Source of the DNA: an uncultured Verrucomicrobiae bacterium
GTDB lineage: Bacteria > Verrucomicrobiota > Verrucomicrobiia > Chthoniobacterales > UBA10450
DNA: 64,000 nucleotides
Reading direction: 5' to 3'
Assembly (NCBI GenBank): GCA_963735805.1
Contig: CAVTMK010000001.1
Coordinates: 192,001-256,000, forward strand
The notes under the pieces are model-generated. The model made no database searches and was not told the origin of the DNA. It saw nothing but the letters and a program-made list of their open reading frames with translations. Positions 9,566 to 22,617 of this stretch are shown one piece after another (the stretch's first letter is position 1; each line of letters starts with the position of its first letter). The translations under genes and the position numbers were made by a program.

Positions 9566-10579
9566 TTACGGCAGCTTGCCGAGATGTTCTCTAGGCGTTT
9601 CGCGCGAGAGTAATGCCATGTCCGCATCCACCATGATACGGACAAGTTCATGAAACAGGGTCTTCGGTTCCCAATGCAGAGTCTTTCTCGCCTTCGAAGC
9701 GTCACCAACCAAAACATCCACCTCCGCTGGACGCTCATATCGCGGATCGTGCTTGACGTATCGCTTCCAGTCCAGATTGGCGTGCGCAAAAGCTGCTTCA
9801 ACAAACTCGCGGACTGTGTGCGGTTCGCCGGTAGCCAGAACAAAATCGTCACCTTCGTCGAGCTGCAAAATCCGCCACATGCCTTCGACGTATTCAGGTG
9901 CAAAGCCCCAATCTCGCTTTGCATCCAAATTGCCGAGGAACAATTCCTTTTGCAGTCCGTGTTTGATAGCCGCAACAGCACGCGTGATTTTGCGAGTGAC
10001 AAAAGTTTCGCCGCGCCGGGGGCTTTCATGGTTGAACATGATGCCGTTACTCGCACAAAGACCGTAGCTTTCTCGATAATTGATGGTCGCCCAGTATGAA
10101 AAGACCTTTGCCACACCATAGGGACTGCGCGGCCAAAACGGTGTCTTTTCAGTTTGCGGCACCTCTTGGGCCTTTCCAAAAATTTCGCTGCTGGAAGCCT
10201 GAAAAAAACGGGAACGCAATCCTACTTCACGAATTGCCTCCAGAATACGGATGGTACCCACGCCAGTGACGTTCGCAGTGTACTCTGGAATATCGAAACT
10301 CACCCGGACGTGGCTTTGAGCCCCCAGATGATAAATTTCGTCAGGCTTCAGGTGGTAAAGAAGCTTCACCAGATTCACAGAGTCGCTGAGATCTCCGTAA
10401 TGTAGAAACAGTCGCACGTCGTTGACGTGTGGATCAGCATAAAGATGGTCGATGCGAGCAGTGTTAAACGTGCTTGCACGGCGAATAATGCCATGAACTT
10501 CATATCCCTTCTCCAGCAGCAACTCGGCAAGATAACTTCCATCCTGACCGGTGATGCCGGTGATCAACGCTTTTTTCAT
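9566..10579 (-). CDS. gmd: GDP-mannose 4,6-dehydratase
   Basis: Start taken at [51 protein letters not shown]. Confidence 0.97.
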
Positions 10580-10590
10580 GAGCGCATAAT

Positions 10591-10614
10591 TGTAGGGCGT
10601 TTCTGTGAAACGCC
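10591..10614 (+). repeat. GTAG-type REP-like hairpin
   Basis: TGTAG followed by the GGCGTTTC-TGT-GAAACGCC palindrome. Confidence 0.75.
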
Positions 10615-10673
10615 AACGCAAGAACATCCGCCCGGCGCGCACTGCGGCGGACCCCTGCAATCCGGAGCGGCCG

Positions 10674-11591: not shown

Positions 11592-14500
11592 GTGAAAAAC
11601 AGCGCGGATAACCACACAGCGATTTGCATCGCCGGTGCGCACCGTTCAGGAACATCGATGCTCACAAGGCTCTTGCACACCTGCGGTCTCTACCTCGGCC
11701 CAAAAAGCGAATTGATGCCACCGCAGGCCGATAACCCTGACGGCTTCTGGGAACATCTGGGATTCGTTGCCGTGAATGACGAGCTATTACATGCTCTCGG
11801 CGGCGCCTGGGACCTTCCACCAAAAGTTGCCGAAAATTTAAGTGACCCGCGCCTCGATCCCGTGCGCATGAAAGCACGGCTGCTAATCGAACGTTTCCAT
11901 TCGGCAAAGTTCTGGGGCTGGAAGGATCCGCGCACCAGTTTGACGCAGCCGTTCTGGCAGGCGCTTTTGCCGGGCCTGAAGACGCTTATCATCGTGCGGA
12001 ATCCGCTCGAAGTCGCCCACTCGATGCGGGAGCGAAACGGAACATCCTATTCGCTCGGTTTACGGCTTTGGGAAATTTATAACCGGCGCTTGATCGCGGC
12101 GGCAAGTGAGCAAGACCATCTTATTACTTATTACGATTTATTTTTCGAGGACCCGGAGGCGGAGCTGCGGCGAATTGTAGAATTCGCTGGTTTGCCCGAC
12201 AAGGAAATCGCTCGCGCCGCCGCACTCGTAAGAAAGCCAAGACGCCATACTCATTTCACGGTTGAGCACCTTATTGATGCCGGCGTAGCTCCGGAAGTAA
12301 TTGAGTTTTATCGCGCTTTGATTGCTGAAGCATCGGCATCCAGAGAAAACAAGGCACATATGGGCAGCGCACACCACGTCACAAAAGCGGACGAGGCCGA
12401 TTTGCTTCCCGGCGCCATCACCCGGCTAAACGCCTTAGTTCCGGAAAGGATTGCTCACATCGAAGATCTCTACCAGGAACTCTTGGCCCAGGCGGAAACT
12501 CGGCACAAAACGCAAGTTAAGGAGCTCAGTGAGCACTTGGCTCGCCAAAACGCTAGCATTACCGAAACGAACCACCTTCTTCGCGAAAAAAGCCTTAGCC
12601 TAGCGGAGAGCGAAACACGGGAAGATGAACTGCGGAAGCGTCTGCGTTTGCAATTGAAGGCTACCGAGAGGCTTTGTCGACTCTTGGAGGAGACCGACCA
12701 CGCAGCAGCCCAGCTTCGCTCTTCAGCGCGCTGGCAAATTGCAAATCCCATTGCGGCGTTCAAGGCCAAGCTCTCTCCTTCGCAGTCGCAGAGCTTGTTA
12801 GGGTATGGTCATCTGGAAAAGGTCATCTCCACATATCAGAAGTGGCGAACTACCTATCCGGAAATCACTGCGGCTGATGACCAGATTCAGGCGCTGATTT
12901 CAGGCGGAGTTTCTTCCGCATGGCAGAGAGTGGCGCCAGTCGAACCACCTGAACCGATACGTCCGATTGAGTTTCCGAGCCGCGAGCAGGTCGAAGTTTC
13001 AATTATCATTCCGGTGTTCGGTCAATTCCGTTTCACCCAGGCCTGCCTGGCTTCCCTGCAGGAGAATCAAGGAACAGAATGCTTTGAAGTCATTGTGGTG
13101 GATGATTGCTCGACGGACGCCACTCCGGAAGCTGTCCCGCGGATGCCAGGAGTCATCTATTTGCGCAACCAAACGAATTTCGGTTTCGTGGGGTCGTGCA
13201 ATCGCGGTGCCGAGGCCGCGCGGGGTAAATACCTCGTCTTTTTGAATAACGACACGCTCGTGAGACCAGGTTGGCTAAGCGCGTTGATTGATACTTTTGT
13301 CGAGGAACCCCGCGCGGGCATCGTTGGCTCAAAGCTTCTTTATCCTAATGGCCGGTTGCAGGAAGCAGGCGGAATCATATGGCGCGATGCATCAGGATGG
13401 AACTATGGCAAATCTGACGACCCGAAAAAGCCTGAGTACAATTATCTGCGCGAAGTTGACTATTGCTCAGCGGCAGCGTTGATGATTCCGAAATCGCTAT
13501 TTGCGACCGTGCAGGGCTTCGACTCACGGTACGCGCCCGCATATTACGAAGACACCGACCTGGCGTTTAAAGTTCGGAAAGCAGATTACAAGGTTTTGTA
13601 CCAACCGTTAAGTGAGGTCATCCACTATGAGGGAGCAACCGGCGGAACCGATCTTGCGACCGGTACGAAGAAACATCAAGAGATCAACCGCTCGACGTTT
13701 GCAGAAAAATGGGCTGCCGCACTAAAAACAAAGCCACCTAACGGGGATTCGGCTTTTTTGAGGCAGGCTCCGCAAGGGCGAAAGAACATCCTCGTGATCG
13801 ACCATCATGTCCCGAAGCCCGATCACGATTCAGGGTCTCTTCGAATGTTTCAGATTCTTAAGCTACTTCATCAGCTCGGTCATCGCGTTACTTTCGTTCC
13901 GGATAACCTGGCAAATGTTGCTTTTTACACAGGCGAGCTGCAGAAACGTGGAATTGAAGTCGTTCACCATCCCTATATCAAAACGGTGCGCGATTACCTC
14001 ATTTCGCACGGCTCGGCGTTCGATGCAGTTGTGCTAAGCCGGTGTGATTTTGCGCGCAAACATATCGCCGACGTGCGTCTCTATGCGCCACAAAGCCGCA
14101 TCATTTTTGATACCGTCGATCTTCATCACGTCCGCGAAGACGGCGAAGCAACACTGACCGGGGATACGGAGCTGCGCCGAAAAGCGCAGGAGAAAGAACG
14201 CTTGGAAAATGAACTAATCGAGCAGACTGACGAAACCTGGGTAGTTAGCCCTGCCGAACAGCGATTGCTCCGTGGGAACTGGCCTGGCAAATCGATTCAA
14301 CTGGTTTCGAATATTGTCGATATCCCCGGATCAAAGACGCCATTTGAACTCCGGCGCGACTGGCTTTTTATCGGCGGATTCCAGCACAGGCCAAACACCG
14401 ATGCTGTTCTCTTCTTCGTGAAGGAAATTTATCCGCTGGTGAGCGAGCGACTGCGCGATGCAAAATTCTATATCATCGGCGATAAAGTGCCGCCGGACAT

Positions 14501-14939
14501 CGCTGCGCTGGCGAGCGAGAGGATCATTGTAGCGGGACTACACAGAGATGTGCGCCCGTTTTTTGACAGCGTGAAACTGTCCATTGCGCCTCTGCGATTT
14601 GGGGCCGGCGTGAAAGGCAAGATCAACCAAAGCATGGCGTTCGGCGTGCCGGTAGTTGCAACGTCTATTGCGGCTGAGGGAATGGAACTTAAAGACCATG
14701 AGGACATTCTGCTTGCCGATAAACCGGAAGAGTTTGCCGAGGCGTTAGTTGAACTCTATGAGTCGGAGGCGCTTTGGAACCGTCTCTCAGAAAACGGTAT
14801 CCGGAAAACACAAGCTCTGTATTCCACTGACGTCGCGCGGAAGAAGCTCGAGTTTTTGTTTAGCGACGATCACCTTGCAAGCTTGCGTAAAGAAGCAGCA
14901 ATTGCAGAGGCGGAGACTGTTACCGCAGCGAAAAGCTGA
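11592..14939 (+). CDS. Multidomain sulfotransferase + coiled coil + GT2 + GT4-like glycosyltransferase
   Basis: GAHRSGTS / WGWKDPR / [10 protein letters not shown] (sulfotransferase); E/K/R/L-rich helix; [27 protein letters not shown] (GT2); [23 protein letters not shown] (GT-B). Confidence 0.9.
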
Positions 14940-14971: not shown

Positions 14972-16225
14972 GTGGAAAAAATCACCGGAAAAATCAATGC
15001 AACCCCCAACCCCGTTTGTTTCGGGGAAGGCTGCGTAGTGATCTCATGGGAAACCAATGATCCCTCCGGCAGTGAGATTCGTGTTGCGACCCCGGCGCAT
15101 AAAGAAAAGGTCGTTGTCGAGGGAGGAAAGGCCGGACGCGTTGAGATTCATTGGATCCAGAACTCGACAGAATACGAATTTCGCCTTTATGCAGCCAGCC
15201 GCCTTCACAAATCGATTGATTCAGTAAAAGTCAAAGGGAACAGCAATTCGTTGCACCCGCTACTGACTGAAGCTGCCCTCGAAGTGAAACGCGGAAACAT
15301 TGGCGTTGCGGCGCTCTCCGACTTTATAGCGAAAGTTCTCCCTTCTTGTGTTCACAACTCAAAGTTTCGCGAGATCTTTCGCTTGTGGGAGCGGCACGGC
15401 TTTCACGTTACGCCAGTGCATTTCTATCAACCTATTCCCAATACCCAATCCTTGCCCGAAACTCTATGGAATCAGGCGAGCGAACTGGTCGGGATCGACA
15501 TGAACGATCCAATGCAGCTCGATCTATTGCGGAATCACTTTCCAAAGTTTCGCGGCGAATATGATCAATTTTCAGCAGAGCCAACCGACTCGCCGGTCCG
15601 TTTCCATCTTAACAACGGGCTTTTTGACGGCACTGACGCGCTGGTTGCTTATTGTATGATTCGCCACTTTCAACCACGGTTGATCATCGAGGTGGGCAGT
15701 GGGTTTTCATCTCTGGTCGCAGCTGAGGCCATCGCAAAAAATAAGGGCTCGGCACTGATTTGTATCGAACCGTTTCCGATGGATTTTCTCCGGAAGGGGG
15801 TACTCGGGCTGCATTCATTGATAGAGAAAAAGGTGGAAGATGTCGACCTGGAATTCTTCTCACAGCTGTGCTCCGGCGACATACTTTTTATCGATAGTTC
15901 TCATACGGTAAGGATTGGCGGAGACGTCAATTACCTGTTCCTTGAAGTGTTGCCACGCCTAAAAGCCGGGGTCATTGTGCACGTCCACGATATCTTCTTT
16001 CCTTTCGATTACCGGCGTGACTGGGTGATGGATGAATTACGTTTTTGGGCGGAGCAATACCTGCTTCAGGCGTTTCTCACATTCAATTCCCAGTTCGAAG
16101 TGCTGATGGCCAACGCTTACCTGGGCCACCGTCATATGGAAGATCTCAAAAGGACTTTCGCGAATTCACCTTGGTGGGGCGGAGGAAGTTTCTGGATGCG
16201 CCGCCGCGCTGCGAAAGCAGATTGA
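14972..16225 (+). CDS. Class I SAM methyltransferase (Methyltransf_24-like) with N-terminal beta-sandwich-like module
   Basis: IIEVGSGFSS, ILFIDSSH, VHVHDIFFP, WAEQYLL. Confidence 0.85.
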   Translation: MEKITGKINATPNPVCFGEGCVVISWETNDPSGSEIRVATPAHKEKVVVEGGKAGRVEIHWIQNSTEYEFRLYAASRLHKSIDSVKVKGNSNSLHPLLTEAALEVKRGNIGVAALSDFIAKVLPSCVHNSKFREIFRLWERHGFHVTPVHFYQPIPNTQSLPETLWNQASELVGIDMNDPMQLDLLRNHFPKFRGEYDQFSAEPTDSPVRFHLNNGLFDGTDALVAYCMIRHFQPRLIIEVGSGFSSLVAAEAIAKNKGSALICIEPFPMDFLRKGVLGLHSLIEKKVEDVDLEFFSQLCSGDILFIDSSHTVRIGGDVNYLFLEVLPRLKAGVIVHVHDIFFPFDYRRDWVMDELRFWAEQYLLQAFLTFNSQFEVLMANAYLGHRHMEDLKRTFANSPWWGGGSFWMRRRAAKAD

Positions 16226-16283: not shown

Positions 16284-17051
16284 TTAGATCAAATCCAATG
16301 TTCGACCGCGGCTCAAAATCTGGTCAAAAATGGAGTCGCTCTCGATCGTCTGTGAGATGTCTCGTCTTCGGACCGCGCTCTTTGCCTTCTGGATCAGATA
16401 AAGAAACCTCCAAACACGGATCTCGGAGATCAGTAGTGTAGACCCCAGCAGCATAATTTGTTCGAACAGGAGGTTGGACAGCGCACGGCGCCTTGCAAAC
16501 GAAGCATCGGGTGATTGGTAATCAGGGTGGTGCGCCCAACTCCAGTCTTCGATCACGTAGATGCCGCCGGGACTCAACAATGGAAAGAGAAATTCGAAAG
16601 ACGCCCTTGTTTCCTCGTAGGTGTGAGACGCATCGTCCACTACCAGATCCAGCTCATCCGCCAGCTCGCCGAGAGCGATTTGCCTCAACTTATCACCATC
16701 GCACTGCGATGTAGCAAAATGAACAAACCGATCCTTGGTACGCGACACGTAGTCCAAAAGCGGCGCAACAGGCTTTGAACTAATATCAACGGCTGACATT
16801 CGGCGAGGTTTGAATAGCTTGTCCAGGAACACGTAGCTACCGCCCTGAAAAATCCCAAGTTCGAGAAGTGATCTCGGTGAGAACCGGGAAGCGAGGTCCT
16901 CATAAACACGCAGATAGGGCTCAGTTTTTACGATCGTAAACGTCTCCGAGGTGGAAGAACGCCGGTCTTTCGGCGGCACAGCGACCTCAACCACGAAGTT
17001 TTCACCTCCCAATGAGAACTCCCCACCGTGACCAATCTTGATCGGATTCAT
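16284..17051 (-). CDS. Class I SAM methyltransferase (CmcI/sugar O-methyltransferase-like)
   Basis: LLELGIFQGGS, DLVVDDASH, GGIYVIEDW. Confidence 0.82.
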   Translation of the reverse strand: MNPIKIGHGGEFSLGGENFVVEVAVPPKDRRSSTSETFTIVKTEPYLRVYEDLASRFSPRSLLELGIFQGGSYVFLDKLFKPRRMSAVDISSKPVAPLLDYVSRTKDRFVHFATSQCDGDKLRQIALGELADELDLVVDDASHTYEETRASFEFLFPLLSPGGIYVIEDWSWAHHPDYQSPDASFARRRALSNLLFEQIMLLGSTLLISEIRVWRFLYLIQKAKSAVRRRDISQTIESDSIFDQILSRGRTLDLI

Positions 17052-17124: not shown

Positions 17125-18165
17125 ATGCAGCGTAACATAAACAAGCCGATTTTTGTCGTGGGATCGCCGCGTTCAGGGACAAGTATTCTCACATGGTGTC
17201 TGGGTCAGCATCCAAATATTTTTCCAGTGCCGGAGTCGAATTGGATGGGAAACTTTGCGGTTAACGTAGCCACGGCCTATCAGGTCGGTGCGGCCCGCGG
17301 CGAACGCTCCATCTTGAGCGCCATGGAAATTCAAGAGGACGAATTGTTCGTTGCGTTCGGTCAAAGTATCAATGACCTGATTCTTTCACATCGCAAGGAT
17401 CTGGAAAGAAAACGTCAATCCTGGATTTCGTTGTCTGGACTTAAAGAGCGCTGGTTGCGGGGCAGAAATGCAGCGTCGGACCCCAAGGCGCGGTGGGTGG
17501 ATGGCACGCCGGAATACTCGCTGTTTATCTGTGGCTTGCGCAAACTCTTTCCAGAGGCTCGCTTCGTTCATATCTTCCGAGACGTCGGCGCAGTGGTGCG
17601 CTCGATGCTGAACTTTCATCGCGTAGCCGGTACTCAGCTGGTTGCTAACGAAGAAAAGGCTTATAAATACTGGCTCCGAACCGTGAGAGCATGTTTAAAG
17701 GCAGAACAGGCGTATGGCCCGGAGGTTGTCCATCGAATCCAATACGTAGATTTGATCGACAATCCAGAATTGACCATGCGCTGGTTGTTCGACCGGCTTG
17801 AGGAACCGTACAGCGCAAAATGTCTGGAGCCGCTTGCCGATCGGATCAACAGTTCCAATGTACCGGCCGATTTTAAAGCGAACGATCCTGCTACCGACCC
17901 GGCAATAATCGAAAAGGCGATGCGCCTTTCCGCAAGTGTAAGCGAAGCTCGACAAGCGGATCGACCTTCGCGAGAGGCTGGCAATGAAATGGAGGCTGCA
18001 TTTAGAAAACGGGTCCATGACACTGCACGCGTGGATCGCGCCTACAAGAAAACCCGGCAAATCATGAAGGCCTTGAATTACTCGGCACTTTTCATGTATG
18101 TGCTGGTTCAAGCAGTGCTCACAATCGGGGATCCTTGTGTCGTTGTCTTGTCGCCGTTGCCATAG
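17125..18165 (+). CDS. Sulfotransferase family protein
   Basis: PIFVVGSPRSGTS (5'-PSB loop), HIFRD...VVRS (3'-PB). Confidence 0.88.
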   Translation: MQRNINKPIFVVGSPRSGTSILTWCLGQHPNIFPVPESNWMGNFAVNVATAYQVGAARGERSILSAMEIQEDELFVAFGQSINDLILSHRKDLERKRQSWISLSGLKERWLRGRNAASDPKARWVDGTPEYSLFICGLRKLFPEARFVHIFRDVGAVVRSMLNFHRVAGTQLVANEEKAYKYWLRTVRACLKAEQAYGPEVVHRIQYVDLIDNPELTMRWLFDRLEEPYSAKCLEPLADRINSSNVPADFKANDPATDPAIIEKAMRLSASVSEARQADRPSREAGNEMEAAFRKRVHDTARVDRAYKKTRQIMKALNYSALFMYVLVQAVLTIGDPCVVVLSPLP

Positions 18166-18276
18166 CCACTCAGTAACACGGACAATCTTGTTGGGGATGC
18201 CTTTTGGAAGAGAGCCAGTCGTTGCTGTCTGCCTTCGGCACCAGCGCCACCGACTGCGTTGATATTTCCAACCGAA

Positions 18277-19386
18277 ATGGAAGAGGGAATAGAGAGACCG
18301 ATTTTTATAGTTGGATCGCCGCGGTCGGGAACAAGCGTTCTGACTTGGTGTCTGGGTAAGCACCCGAATATCATTCCGCTGGAGGAATCTGATTGGATGG
18401 GGGGGTTGGCGATTGATCTGGCGAGGTACTACCAAATCGGGAGTGCGCGCGGTCAATACTCGCTCTTGAGTTCGATGGGCTTGGGAAAAGCGGAATTTTT
18501 CGCTGTCTTTGGCAACACCATAAACAACTTGATCCTACGCCATCGGGTTGATCTTGAGAAAGAACGCTGGCGGCGCGCTGCTGGTCCGGCTCTTCCCATC
18601 GATTTATTCGTTTCAAAATATTACGCAAGAACGCGGTGGGTAGATGGCACGCCGGAATATGCCTTCCATATTTGTGGATTGCGGAAGCTCTTTCCGCAGG
18701 CGCAATTCATCCACATCTTTCGGGATGTGACTTCCGTGGTTCGCTCAATGCTACACTTCCATCAGCTTAGCGGACAAAGTCTGGTCGCCAATGTGCAGGA
18801 GGCGTACAGTTATTGGCTAAGAACTGTAAGCAACTGCTTGCTGGCTGAACAGGCTTACGGGCCGAACGTGGTCCTCCGCATACGGCATTCCGATCTCGTA
18901 GACGCTCCGGAAGCGACTTTGCGCTCCATTTTCAGCTTTGTCGGTGAACCGTTCGCACCGGAATGCCTGGAGCCACTCGCACAAAGGATTAATAGTTCCA
19001 ACGTTCCTGCTGATTTTCAGATTGATGACCGAGGAACCGATCCACGCCTCGTACATCAGGCAATGCAGCTTTGTCGCGAAGTCGAAAAGAGTTCGCAGCC
19101 CCTCGAGGCTTCGGCTGTGGCAATAGAAGAAATAGAGGCAGCTTTCGATGAACGGGTGCAGTTTGTAGCGAGTCTGCCGAAGGAATATCGTAGAGCGCAG
19201 CAATTAATTCTGGAGCAGCAAGACAAAAATCAACAAATCCACGCGCGGGCAGCGACACTGGCAACGGAGGTGAAGAAAAAGATCGCCATCATTGAGGATC
19301 TTCGCGGTGGGCGAAAGCATTCCAAATGGCTGCGTCTACTTTTGGGAGCTTTGCCAAAAGTTACCAACGACAAAGCAAAAGGATGA
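18277..19386 (+). CDS. Sulfotransferase family protein (tandem paralog, C-terminal coiled coil)
   Basis: PIFIVGSPRSGTS, RWVDGTPEY, RINSSNVPADF shared with 17125-18165; ATG at 18277 preferred. Confidence 0.88.
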   Translation: MEEGIERPIFIVGSPRSGTSVLTWCLGKHPNIIPLEESDWMGGLAIDLARYYQIGSARGQYSLLSSMGLGKAEFFAVFGNTINNLILRHRVDLEKERWRRAAGPALPIDLFVSKYYARTRWVDGTPEYAFHICGLRKLFPQAQFIHIFRDVTSVVRSMLHFHQLSGQSLVANVQEAYSYWLRTVSNCLLAEQAYGPNVVLRIRHSDLVDAPEATLRSIFSFVGEPFAPECLEPLAQRINSSNVPADFQIDDRGTDPRLVHQAMQLCREVEKSSQPLEASAVAIEEIEAAFDERVQFVASLPKEYRRAQQLILEQQDKNQQIHARAATLATEVKKKIAIIEDLRGGRKHSKWLRLLLGALPKVTNDKAKG

Positions 19387-21438: not shown

Positions 21439-22617
21439 GTGAAACTGCTAGCACCTGGCCTGCCTCAAAAGGCCTCAAAGATTTCTGAAGCGCTGAACAG
21501 GTTTTTCGCCGAACCCACCCCTTTGCCGCGCCTCTCCAAGGAATCTGACAAGCCGGTCCTCAGATCAAGCAATACACAAGAGGGAAGATCATCATTGCGC
21601 GAGCTTGCCCGTGCTAAAGAGCAGGAGCTTTGGAAGACCAAGTTCGCATATCGCCCCAAAACATTTTGGTACCCGTATCCCACTCTGCGAAATATTTCTG
21701 TATTGGAGCAACTCCTGTCCGGGGTCGGACTTAACTTGCTCGAACTCTGCCGAGGCGAGTATGGCAGGATTGCGGACATCGGCGCCGCCGATGGAGATCT
21801 CGCCTTTTTTTTGGAGGAATTGGGATTCACAGTAGATGTCGTCGACAACGAGTACACAAATTTCAATAAGCTAGAGGGAGCGCGAATACTTAAGAAGGCA
21901 TTAAACTCATCGGCCGCTATCCGTTCGATCGATTTGGACTCGCGGAACCATCTCTTTCCTGAACGGTACGACGCTGCATTTTTCCTCGGCGTTCTCTATC
22001 ACTTAAAAAACCCTTTCTCCATTCTCGAACGACTGGCTCACGTAGCGAGATATTGTTTTCTAAGCACCCGGATCGCCCGACAAACCGCCGACGGTTTAGC
22101 TCTGTCAAAACACCCCCTTGCGTACTTACTGGGCCCAGAGGAATGCAACAACGACAGCACGAACTTCTGGATCTTCACAGATGAAGGGCTCAAGCGACTG
22201 CTTCACCGGACGGGTTGGAATATATTGGCATTCACGACAATTGGCGATACGAGCGGCTCGATGCCGGCTGACCCAAATCATGATGAACGCGCCATCTGCA
22301 TTTTGAAAAGCGACGCCGTATTCGAACTCAGTGCCGCTCCAAATCCTGTGCCTGTCGGTGAAAAGAGGGGAAGCACCAAGGTTCGGTGGAGCACGCCTGA
22401 TGCATGCCCTGGCAAAGTCTACGTCTCGATTAACGGACAAGAAGAGTTTCTGTTTGCAGGAGGACACAAGGGCGTTGCCACAGCCGACTGGATCGAAGCG
22501 GGACGCACCTATGAATTCCGTCTTTACGATTCAGATCGCACTCGCCTGCTCGACGAAATCAGCGTCACGACAACGGCAGAAAAAGCGCAAACCTTCGGCC
22601 GGCAGGTTCCTCTTTGA
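21439..22617 (+). CDS. Class I SAM methyltransferase with C-terminal beta-sandwich-like module
   Basis: IADIGAADG motif I, YDAAFFLGVLYHLKNP. Confidence 0.82.
   Translation: MKLLAPGLPQKASKISEALNRFFAEPTPLPRLSKESDKPVLRSSNTQEGRSSLRELARAKEQELWKTKFAYRPKTFWYPYPTLRNISVLEQLLSGVGLNLLELCRGEYGRIADIGAADGDLAFFLEELGFTVDVVDNEYTNFNKLEGARILKKALNSSAAIRSIDLDSRNHLFPERYDAAFFLGVLYHLKNPFSILERLAHVARYCFLSTRIARQTADGLALSKHPLAYLLGPEECNNDSTNFWIFTDEGLKRLLHRTGWNILAFTTIGDTSGSMPADPNHDERAICILKSDAVFELSAAPNPVPVGEKRGSTKVRWSTPDACPGKVYVSINGQEEFLFAGGHKGVATADWIEAGRTYEFRLYDSDRTRLLDEISVTTTAEKAQTFGRQVPL

Follow-up and report, generated by a model that had tools for sequence, protein, structure and literature searches.

Can one bacterial protein build a glycan, measure its length and end it with sulfate? 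The question is raised by a gene at 11592..14939 (+) of a 64,000-nucleotide stretch of DNA (the window) from an uncultured Verrucomicrobiae bacterium (assembly GCA_963735805.1, contig CAVTMK010000001.1, positions 192,001 to 256,000), which encodes a sulfotransferase, a helical rod, a conserved base and two glycosyltransferases, GT2 and GT4, in one chain of 1115 residues. An initial annotation, made from the sequence alone, described this fusion as a candidate sulfate-capping polymerase with a molecular ruler, of the kind known from ABC (Wzm/Wzt)-exported glycans. In characterised systems of that kind the polymerase sits at the base of a coiled coil whose far end carries the terminator, either a methyltransferase/kinase or a glycosyltransferase (PMC11231755; PMC3482155). 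Our analysis indicates that the fusion is likely a self-terminating glycan polymerase that places a sulfate cap at a distance set by its rod, a reading to which we assign a probability of roughly 0.55. The export route of the prototypes, in contrast, finds no support here.

The genome that holds the window is 94.4% complete and lies in four contigs. It was compared with a close-locus set of 80 genome loci, 61 of them at least 8 kb long and many of them stopping at contig ends, and with a family set of 151 genomes, including four unpublished ones (G136, G014, G002 and G007) on which alone no claim rests. Sequences in all of these sets are non-independent kin. Named relatives of the fusion are labelled as Ca. 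Udaeobacter and other Verrucomicrobia known as metagenome assemblies, with a few records carrying other labels. Ca. Udaeobacter is a common and abundant group of soil bacteria that is uncultured.

A sulfotransferase joined to two glycosyltransferases

The fusion gene is a single uninterrupted frame with a GTG start. Pfam places Sulfotransfer_3 at residues 11-204 (E 4e-10), GT2 at 470-592 (1.5e-26) and GT1_4/GT4 at 923-1057 (8e-23), and frame, Pfam and fold models agree with the annotated picture of one 1115-residue protein in which a sulfotransferase and a helix precede GT2 and GT-B domains. The database copy of the window protein begins at M23 (1093 residues), as do many homologue records. 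A start at M23 would cut off the loop that binds 3'-phosphoadenosine 5'-phosphosulfate (PAPS), and we favour the GTG start because the N-terminus is conserved among homologues. Records that begin at M23, and that lose window positions 11592-11657, may hide the sulfotransferase from annotation. A search upstream of the fusion gave no sigma-70 promoter match, and in one RNA run the gene is represented by a 209-base contig at about 99% identity and a depth of 2, which is not evidence of expression.

The sulfotransferase domain (residues 9-252, 11616..12347, +; PF13469) is the candidate terminator head. In the full-length model the predicted local distance difference test score (pLDDT) falls below 50 across most of this domain, and residues 1-253 were therefore folded separately with an 82-row alignment, which gave a pLDDT of 94.8 and a TPST-like fold. 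The top 23 VIA rows for this model are all sulfotransferases, led by human TPST1 (Z 16.3, root-mean-square deviation 3.8, 208 aligned residues), and Foldseek concurs. Among solved structures, a single-sequence search returned weak TPST2 matches together with a spurious match to a TGF-beta receptor, and a profile search returned weak matches to sulfotransferases. Two motifs are unchanged across 51 close homologues: the 5'-phosphosulfate-binding loop (5'-PSB; residues 17-22, 11640..11657, +, containing R18-S19-G20-T21-S22) and the 3'-phosphate-binding R-x7-S pair (3'-PB; R136 and S144, 11997..12023, +). An RSGTS-type motif recurs in 132 of 150 distant representatives, and the R-x7-S pattern, invariant in alignments A1 and A2, recurs in 150/150. 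Presumably the two motifs have the PAPS-contacting roles that they have elsewhere in the family. Judged by its motifs and predicted fold, the head, first annotated as a PAPS-binding sulfotransferase, has the fold of PAPS-dependent sulfotransferases and both PAPS motifs. Genes for CysD and for a CysN-CysC fusion (CysNC), which the initial annotation had proposed to look for, are present in the genome, together with 11 Sulfotransfer_3 matches. At E up to 1e-30 the head family numbers 1575 clusters. Membership in NoeE, the Nod-factor sulfotransferase (NCBIfam NF052394), was considered and rejected: the fusion is unmatched at E 0.01, and two downstream sulfotransferases match across just 30 residues, far under the cut-off.

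Both glycosyltransferase modules are recognised by Pfam and by predicted fold, in agreement with their first assignment. The GT2 module (residues 469-712, 12996..13727, +) is conserved, has a GT-A fold and retains its acidic motifs. The GT4 module (residues 732-1089, 13785..14858, +) matches PF13692 and has BshA, MshA and PglA as its best Foldseek matches. Both the GT-A and the GT-B fold are seen in the full-length model.

A rod of variable length and an exchangeable head

Between head and base lies a predicted coiled-coil rod (residues 283-376, 12438..12719, +), and no other segment differs so widely in length from one relative to the next. AlphaFold draws it, as a monomer and with low confidence (block pLDDT 49-65), as one continuous helix of 94 residues, and its hydrophobic residues recur with a period of 3.54 (shuffle p 0.005); it lies in the place of the charged helical segment noted at the outset. 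Given a helix rise of 0.149 nm per residue, the rod would be about 14 nm long. A home-made and uncalibrated coiled-coil score peaks at residues 281-400, does not place the protein in the top 45 of the 1538 open reading frames of the genome, and is positive for 97 of 136 distant heads; it was not relied on. A search of residues 255-465 against the ESM Atlas gave no usable match.

Rod length was compared in two sets. The first holds 121 sequences, two of which are the window protein itself, and shows 18 distinct lengths from head to SxRW motif (78-197 residues), with a GT2 segment of 262 residues and a base of 91 in nearly all. Common steps between lengths are 7, 11 and 18 residues, which keep the helical register, and the 18 distinct lengths are phased with a period of 3.61 (R 0.92; 0/2000 random sets as high, p 0.0005). 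The second set comes from the 80 genome loci, of which 59 were parsed, 20 having missed the anchors and one having given no row. Here the rod spans 70-267 residues with a period of 3.63 (R 0.75, p 0.0005). Long rods consist of 54-bp tandem units, with 6.2 copies in locus L092; the window's own rod has no DNA repeat array. Because the rod alone changes length and does so in register, these patterns support its reading as a ruler. Four genomes hold two fusion copies each (L042/L052, L043/L074, L045/L081 and L062/L095), with rods of 89/89, 89/129, 96/88 and 96/168 residues, respectively. Such pairs could provide two chain-length modes in one genome.

The rod ends in a conserved base (12720..12854, +) made of an SxRW..NP motif and a helix at residues 406-421, and it is a candidate point of membrane contact. 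Residues S378, R380, W381, N385 and P386 are invariant in the 51 close homologues. The motif had been annotated as amphipathic; its conservation holds up well, and its amphipathicity is weak, with a hydrophobic moment of 0.09-0.25. Helix 406-421 is amphipathic (moment 0.55-0.58, about the 95th percentile of the protein) and appears to be the better candidate for membrane contact. No transmembrane segment was found (maximum 19-residue hydropathy 1.33).

The head is exchangeable. When the GT2-GT4 part was used as query and longer proteins were kept (n=120), the rod-GT2-GT4 chassis carried a sulfotransferase in 108 proteins, a GT2 in 10, a WbsX-GT4 in one and a methyltransferase in one, the last of these from Methylospira at 47% identity. 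Eleven proteins without a sulfotransferase head, at 74-77% identity, retain the rod base and the SxRW motif. Glycosyl and methyl heads represent known cap chemistries (PMC11231755). The swapped slot is the slot of known terminators, and the exchange therefore supports a terminator role for the head.

Weighing the terminator reading against its alternatives

In the mechanism that we propose, the rod base (residues 377-421) would lie against the cytoplasmic membrane on its inner side, where GT2 and GT4 would add sugars alternately to a lipid-linked acceptor. Two or three subunits would bundle their rods into a parallel coiled coil some 14 nm long, which keeps the sulfotransferase at a distance. 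When the growing chain arrives at the head, PAPS made by CysD/CysNC would give its sulfate to the non-reducing end and block further extension. Gain or loss of 7-, 11- and 18-residue units would tune the rod between lineages. Export in this lineage would not pass through Wzm/Wzt, and an MsbA-type ABC protein would be the first candidate flippase. Sulfate is known to stop a chain in vertebrate matriglycan (PMC10955480). For the terminator-ruler-polymerase as first proposed, register-keeping length change limited to the rod and head exchange argue in favour, and the Wzm/Wzt context fails.

A number of observations weigh against this mechanism. The model of the rod is monomeric and of low confidence, and the moment of the SxRW motif lies under the protein median of 0.29. 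The link between rod length and chain length is drawn here from sequence pattern. The ABC-exported capsule of Cobetia marina bears sulfate on every repeat (PMC11766843), and in Aeromonas a sulfotransferase gene lies between wzt and wbbB and the reported O-antigen structure is without sulfate (PMC4483657). The largest group of objections concerns export. Prototypes export capped chains only, through a Wzm/Wzt transporter whose binding module reads the cap (PMC11231755). We found no Wzt_C domain in this 94.4% complete genome, and the four ABC2_membrane matches that might represent Wzm all belong to other systems; a Wzm profile reached E 0.4 at best. None of the 27 ABC-type ATPases in the genome is Wzt-like, with Wzt queries from the family reaching 34% identity at best. 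The genome thus lacks the checkpoint at which the prototypes read the cap. WecA was likewise not found in 26/26 family genomes, each of which has a single PF00953 match, being MraY in this genome. The only small phosphoglycosyl transferase of the genome belongs to another cluster, of the Wzx/Wzy type, on contig C4. This large exopolysaccharide cluster (G000:C4:49830-114880) includes exosortase-like and two-component genes and stands apart from the fusion locus.

The same picture is obtained from relatives. No wzm or wzt was found in the 80 close loci nor in 20 further family regions. Defining carriers by a best E up to 1e-90 for head plus rod (our own cut-off, with some matches split or partial), 34 of the 151 family genomes carry the fusion and 58 have Wzt. 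Wzt occurs in 15/34 carriers and 43/117 others (Fisher p 0.55), a value that shows lack of enrichment only, since the genomes are kin. Excluding the unpublished G136, Wzt is present in 15 of 33 carriers, and 15 of the 18 Wzt-less ones are at least 90% complete. No Wzm was found among the PF01061 matches of G012, G037 and G001 (6-10 contigs) or of G110 (one contig, with a distant fusion); the control genome G104 does have Wzm. Wzt was not found in these four relatives either. The initial annotation had called for wzm/wzt with a carbohydrate-binding module, and this combination was not found in the present genome or in most carriers, leaving the "ABC-exported" part of the proposal unsupported. 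Distant heads (40-55% identity) do occur beside wzm/wzt in 9 of 80 metagenome loci, or 8 of the 27 that are at least 8 kb long, and 5 of these 9 Wzt proteins carry Wzt_C.

The best-surviving alternative is that the sulfotransferase decorates the chain internally, on every repeat or a subset, with the rod acting as a scaffold or reach-extender and length being set otherwise. Such sulfation is documented for an ABC-exported bacterial capsule (PMC11766843), and the locus, with two more sulfotransferases and three methyltransferases, resembles a general decoration kit. That no cap-reading Wzt was found fits this explanation as well, and the GT2 heads on the same chassis could add side branches rather than caps. 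However, an internal modifier would not have to be kept 12-40 nm away from the polymerase, and a rod that alone changes length, freely and in register, fits a ruler. Moreover, in the characterised examples described in PMC11231755 the coil invariably bears a terminator at its far end. We consider internal decoration possible and rather unlikely.

More doubtful still is a short oligosaccharide product, carried by a glycolipid or protein, for which GT2 and GT4 would act once each and the sulfotransferase would finish. The failure to find either Wzm/Wzt or WecA would suit such a product, as would the surroundings of the gene, which are housekeeping genes, with rph in 60 of the 80 close loci, and not an export cluster, but a rod of 14 nm, and of 30-40 nm in relatives, is hard to explain for two sugars. 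Very improbable, lastly, is a standard capped O-antigen whose Wzm/Wzt fell into assembly gaps or escaped detection through divergence: gaps are possible in a 94.4% complete genome in which the ~800-residue Wzy_C/ligase-type gene of most relatives was not found, and 15/33 published carriers have Wzt somewhere, but Wzt in carriers is at background frequency, the transporter is not found in the close loci, the family regions or the largely complete Wzt-less carriers, and G012 and G037, which with G001 and G110 contrast with the control G104, come near to closed genomes that hold the fusion and have every ABC ATPase otherwise assigned.

If the terminator reading is right, export would use another flippase. 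Four MsbA-like proteins in the genome score best as MsbA or MsbA-related, below cut-off, and none scores as PglK, so no flippase is assigned. A second protein of ruler layout (G000:C2:819514-821916; L130:4514-6916) consists of an unassigned head, a short coil, a basic-hydrophobic motif and a GT2-GT2 pair. It lies upstream of an RmlC-like gene and is arranged head to head with a fused lpxL-waaF gene in 12 of 13 loci. It is matched in 104 of 151 family genomes, among them 13/13 genomes of a genus with Wzt in 0/13; since the query took in part of a GT2 domain, weak matches may represent other GT2 proteins. Its position beside lpxL-waaF and its retention in a Wzt-less genus point to a route through lipid A-core and an MsbA-type protein. 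On a wider and quite tentative view, Ca. Udaeobacter and its kin may use ruler polymerases outside Wzm/Wzt, with a sulfate-capped chain that is built cytoplasmically, straight onto lipid A-core or onto another lipid that needs no WecA primer, and then flipped by an MsbA-type protein; rod repeats would adjust the length of surface chains from lineage to lineage. The idea that a missing O-antigen ligase speaks for assembly straight on lipid A was dropped, Wzy_C/ligase-type matches being present in 26/26 genomes. Two further observations concern the second protein and its partner. In 7 of 80 loci headless copies of it stand downstream of the sulfotransferase fusion, and the partner (G000:C2:817482-819560; L130:2482-4560) joins an LpxL-type lipid A acyltransferase and a heptosyltransferase II in one frame of 692 residues that is conserved in relatives.

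Genomic setting and known ruler systems

In close relatives the fusion is divergent from rph (60/80 loci) and gmd (51/80). The window's gmd (9566..10660, -; TIGR01472 above cut-off) encodes a GDP-mannose 4,6-dehydratase, a possible donor pathway, and lies beyond the divergent rph. In other genera the fusion is found near a phosphoribosyltransferase gene and secA, both named by sequence reading. Since this neighbourhood is kept and the fusion is matched in 12 of 13 genomes of the genus, it behaves as a vertically kept gene. Directly after it, here and in 49 of 80 related loci, comes a PF13578 methyltransferase with an extra N-terminal domain (14972..16225, +), followed by a profile-matched CmcI/rhamnosyl O-methyltransferase-like protein (16284..17051, -). 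Two stand-alone sulfotransferases lie 2-4 kb downstream of the fusion: the first (17125..18165, +; PF13469) is of a different subfamily, and its family occurs in 45/80 related loci; the second (18259..19386, +), also recognised by Pfam, has a short tail, helical and charged, and a basic-hydrophobic end. Some of the stand-alone sulfotransferases downstream of the fusion, at L098, L062 and L065, have gained the same rod base and an SxRW-type motif in a WbdD-like split form. A PF13489 methyltransferase (21439..22617, +) carries a C-terminal domain that by eye resembles the N-terminal domain of 14972-16225. This shared beta-rich domain of about 85 residues has no Pfam match and might be a carbohydrate-binding module, similar to the one predicted for O7 ORF6.

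Homologues at 29-36% identity occur on plasmids of Azospirillum, Cereibacter, Desulfolutivibrio and Methylosinus, with no annotated wzm/wzt within 10-12 kb. Two of them lie in glycan clusters: a distant head homologue on plasmid p5 of Azospirillum brasilense Sp7 (L122:11908-13983), with gmd and glycosyltransferases, and another on plasmid pB of Cereibacter sphaeroides 2.4.1 (L123:12019-13434), with a rhamnan synthesis F gene. Azospirillum and Cereibacter are cultured and tractable, which makes them useful test hosts.

Among known systems, the nearest likeness is to WbbB of Klebsiella pneumoniae O12 and Raoultella terrigena and to ORF6 of K. pneumoniae O7, which likewise combine an N-terminal head, a coiled coil and two C-terminal glycosyltransferases in a single chain (PMC11231755). 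Their heads are a beta-Kdo transferase and a methyltransferase-kinase, whereas that of the fusion is a sulfotransferase. The fusion further differs in its GT2 plus GT4 pair, in the failure to find Wzm/Wzt with a carbohydrate-binding module in its genome, and in being known from sequence. It has the arrangement of a terminator-ruler protein, in that a candidate terminator is predicted at the far end of a coil and glycosyltransferase modules, the putative polymerase, at its base. We regard it as working like WbbB, but do not count it as a member of the WbdD/WbbB-type systems, which it does not match in its exporter. In WbdD/WbdA of E. coli O9a and of K. pneumoniae O3 and O5, a head is also held off the membrane by a coil, which is about 20 nm long in WbdD (PMC5082667) as opposed to the 14 nm estimated here, and the natural rod lengths of the fusion mirror the insertions and deletions engineered into WbdD. 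However, WbdD is a trimer, the polymerase is fused in the window protein, and the cap would be sulfate and not methyl-phosphate or methyl. A match in chemistry is provided by HNK-1 sulfotransferase and LARGE1 of vertebrates, in which a two-module polymerase makes matriglycan and sulfation of the terminal sugar stops the chain (PMC10955480). These are separate Golgi enzymes with no ruler, and the likeness is one of function with no homology implied. The capsule of Cobetia marina KMM 1449 shares with the fusion a bacterial cytoplasmic assembly, PAPS genes and sulfotransferases (PMC11766843), but carries sulfate on each repeat and leaves through KpsMT, and the word "coiled" is absent from the main text of that paper.

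We found no sulfotransferase terminator in the literature searched, although a survey of termination chemistries (Mann, Kimber and Whitfield 2019) may list the class; the word stem "sulf" is absent from PMC11231755. If our reading is correct, sulfate is a new cap chemistry for bacterial glycans under ruler control, and the finding bears on the surface of an uncultured soil group. Characterised ruler systems all export through a cap-reading Wzm/Wzt, as far as the literature examined goes (PMC11231755), and conservation of ruler proteins without this transporter would imply an unknown export route or acceptor. Natural rods of 70-267 residues, with sulfotransferase or GT2 heads on a chassis that is about 75% identical, offer a ready series for ruler tests, and the same alleles could be used to make glycans of defined length with sulfated ends. 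What is new in comparison with WbbB, O7 ORF6 and WbdD is an exporter-less, lineage-conserved form with a natural series of ruler lengths.

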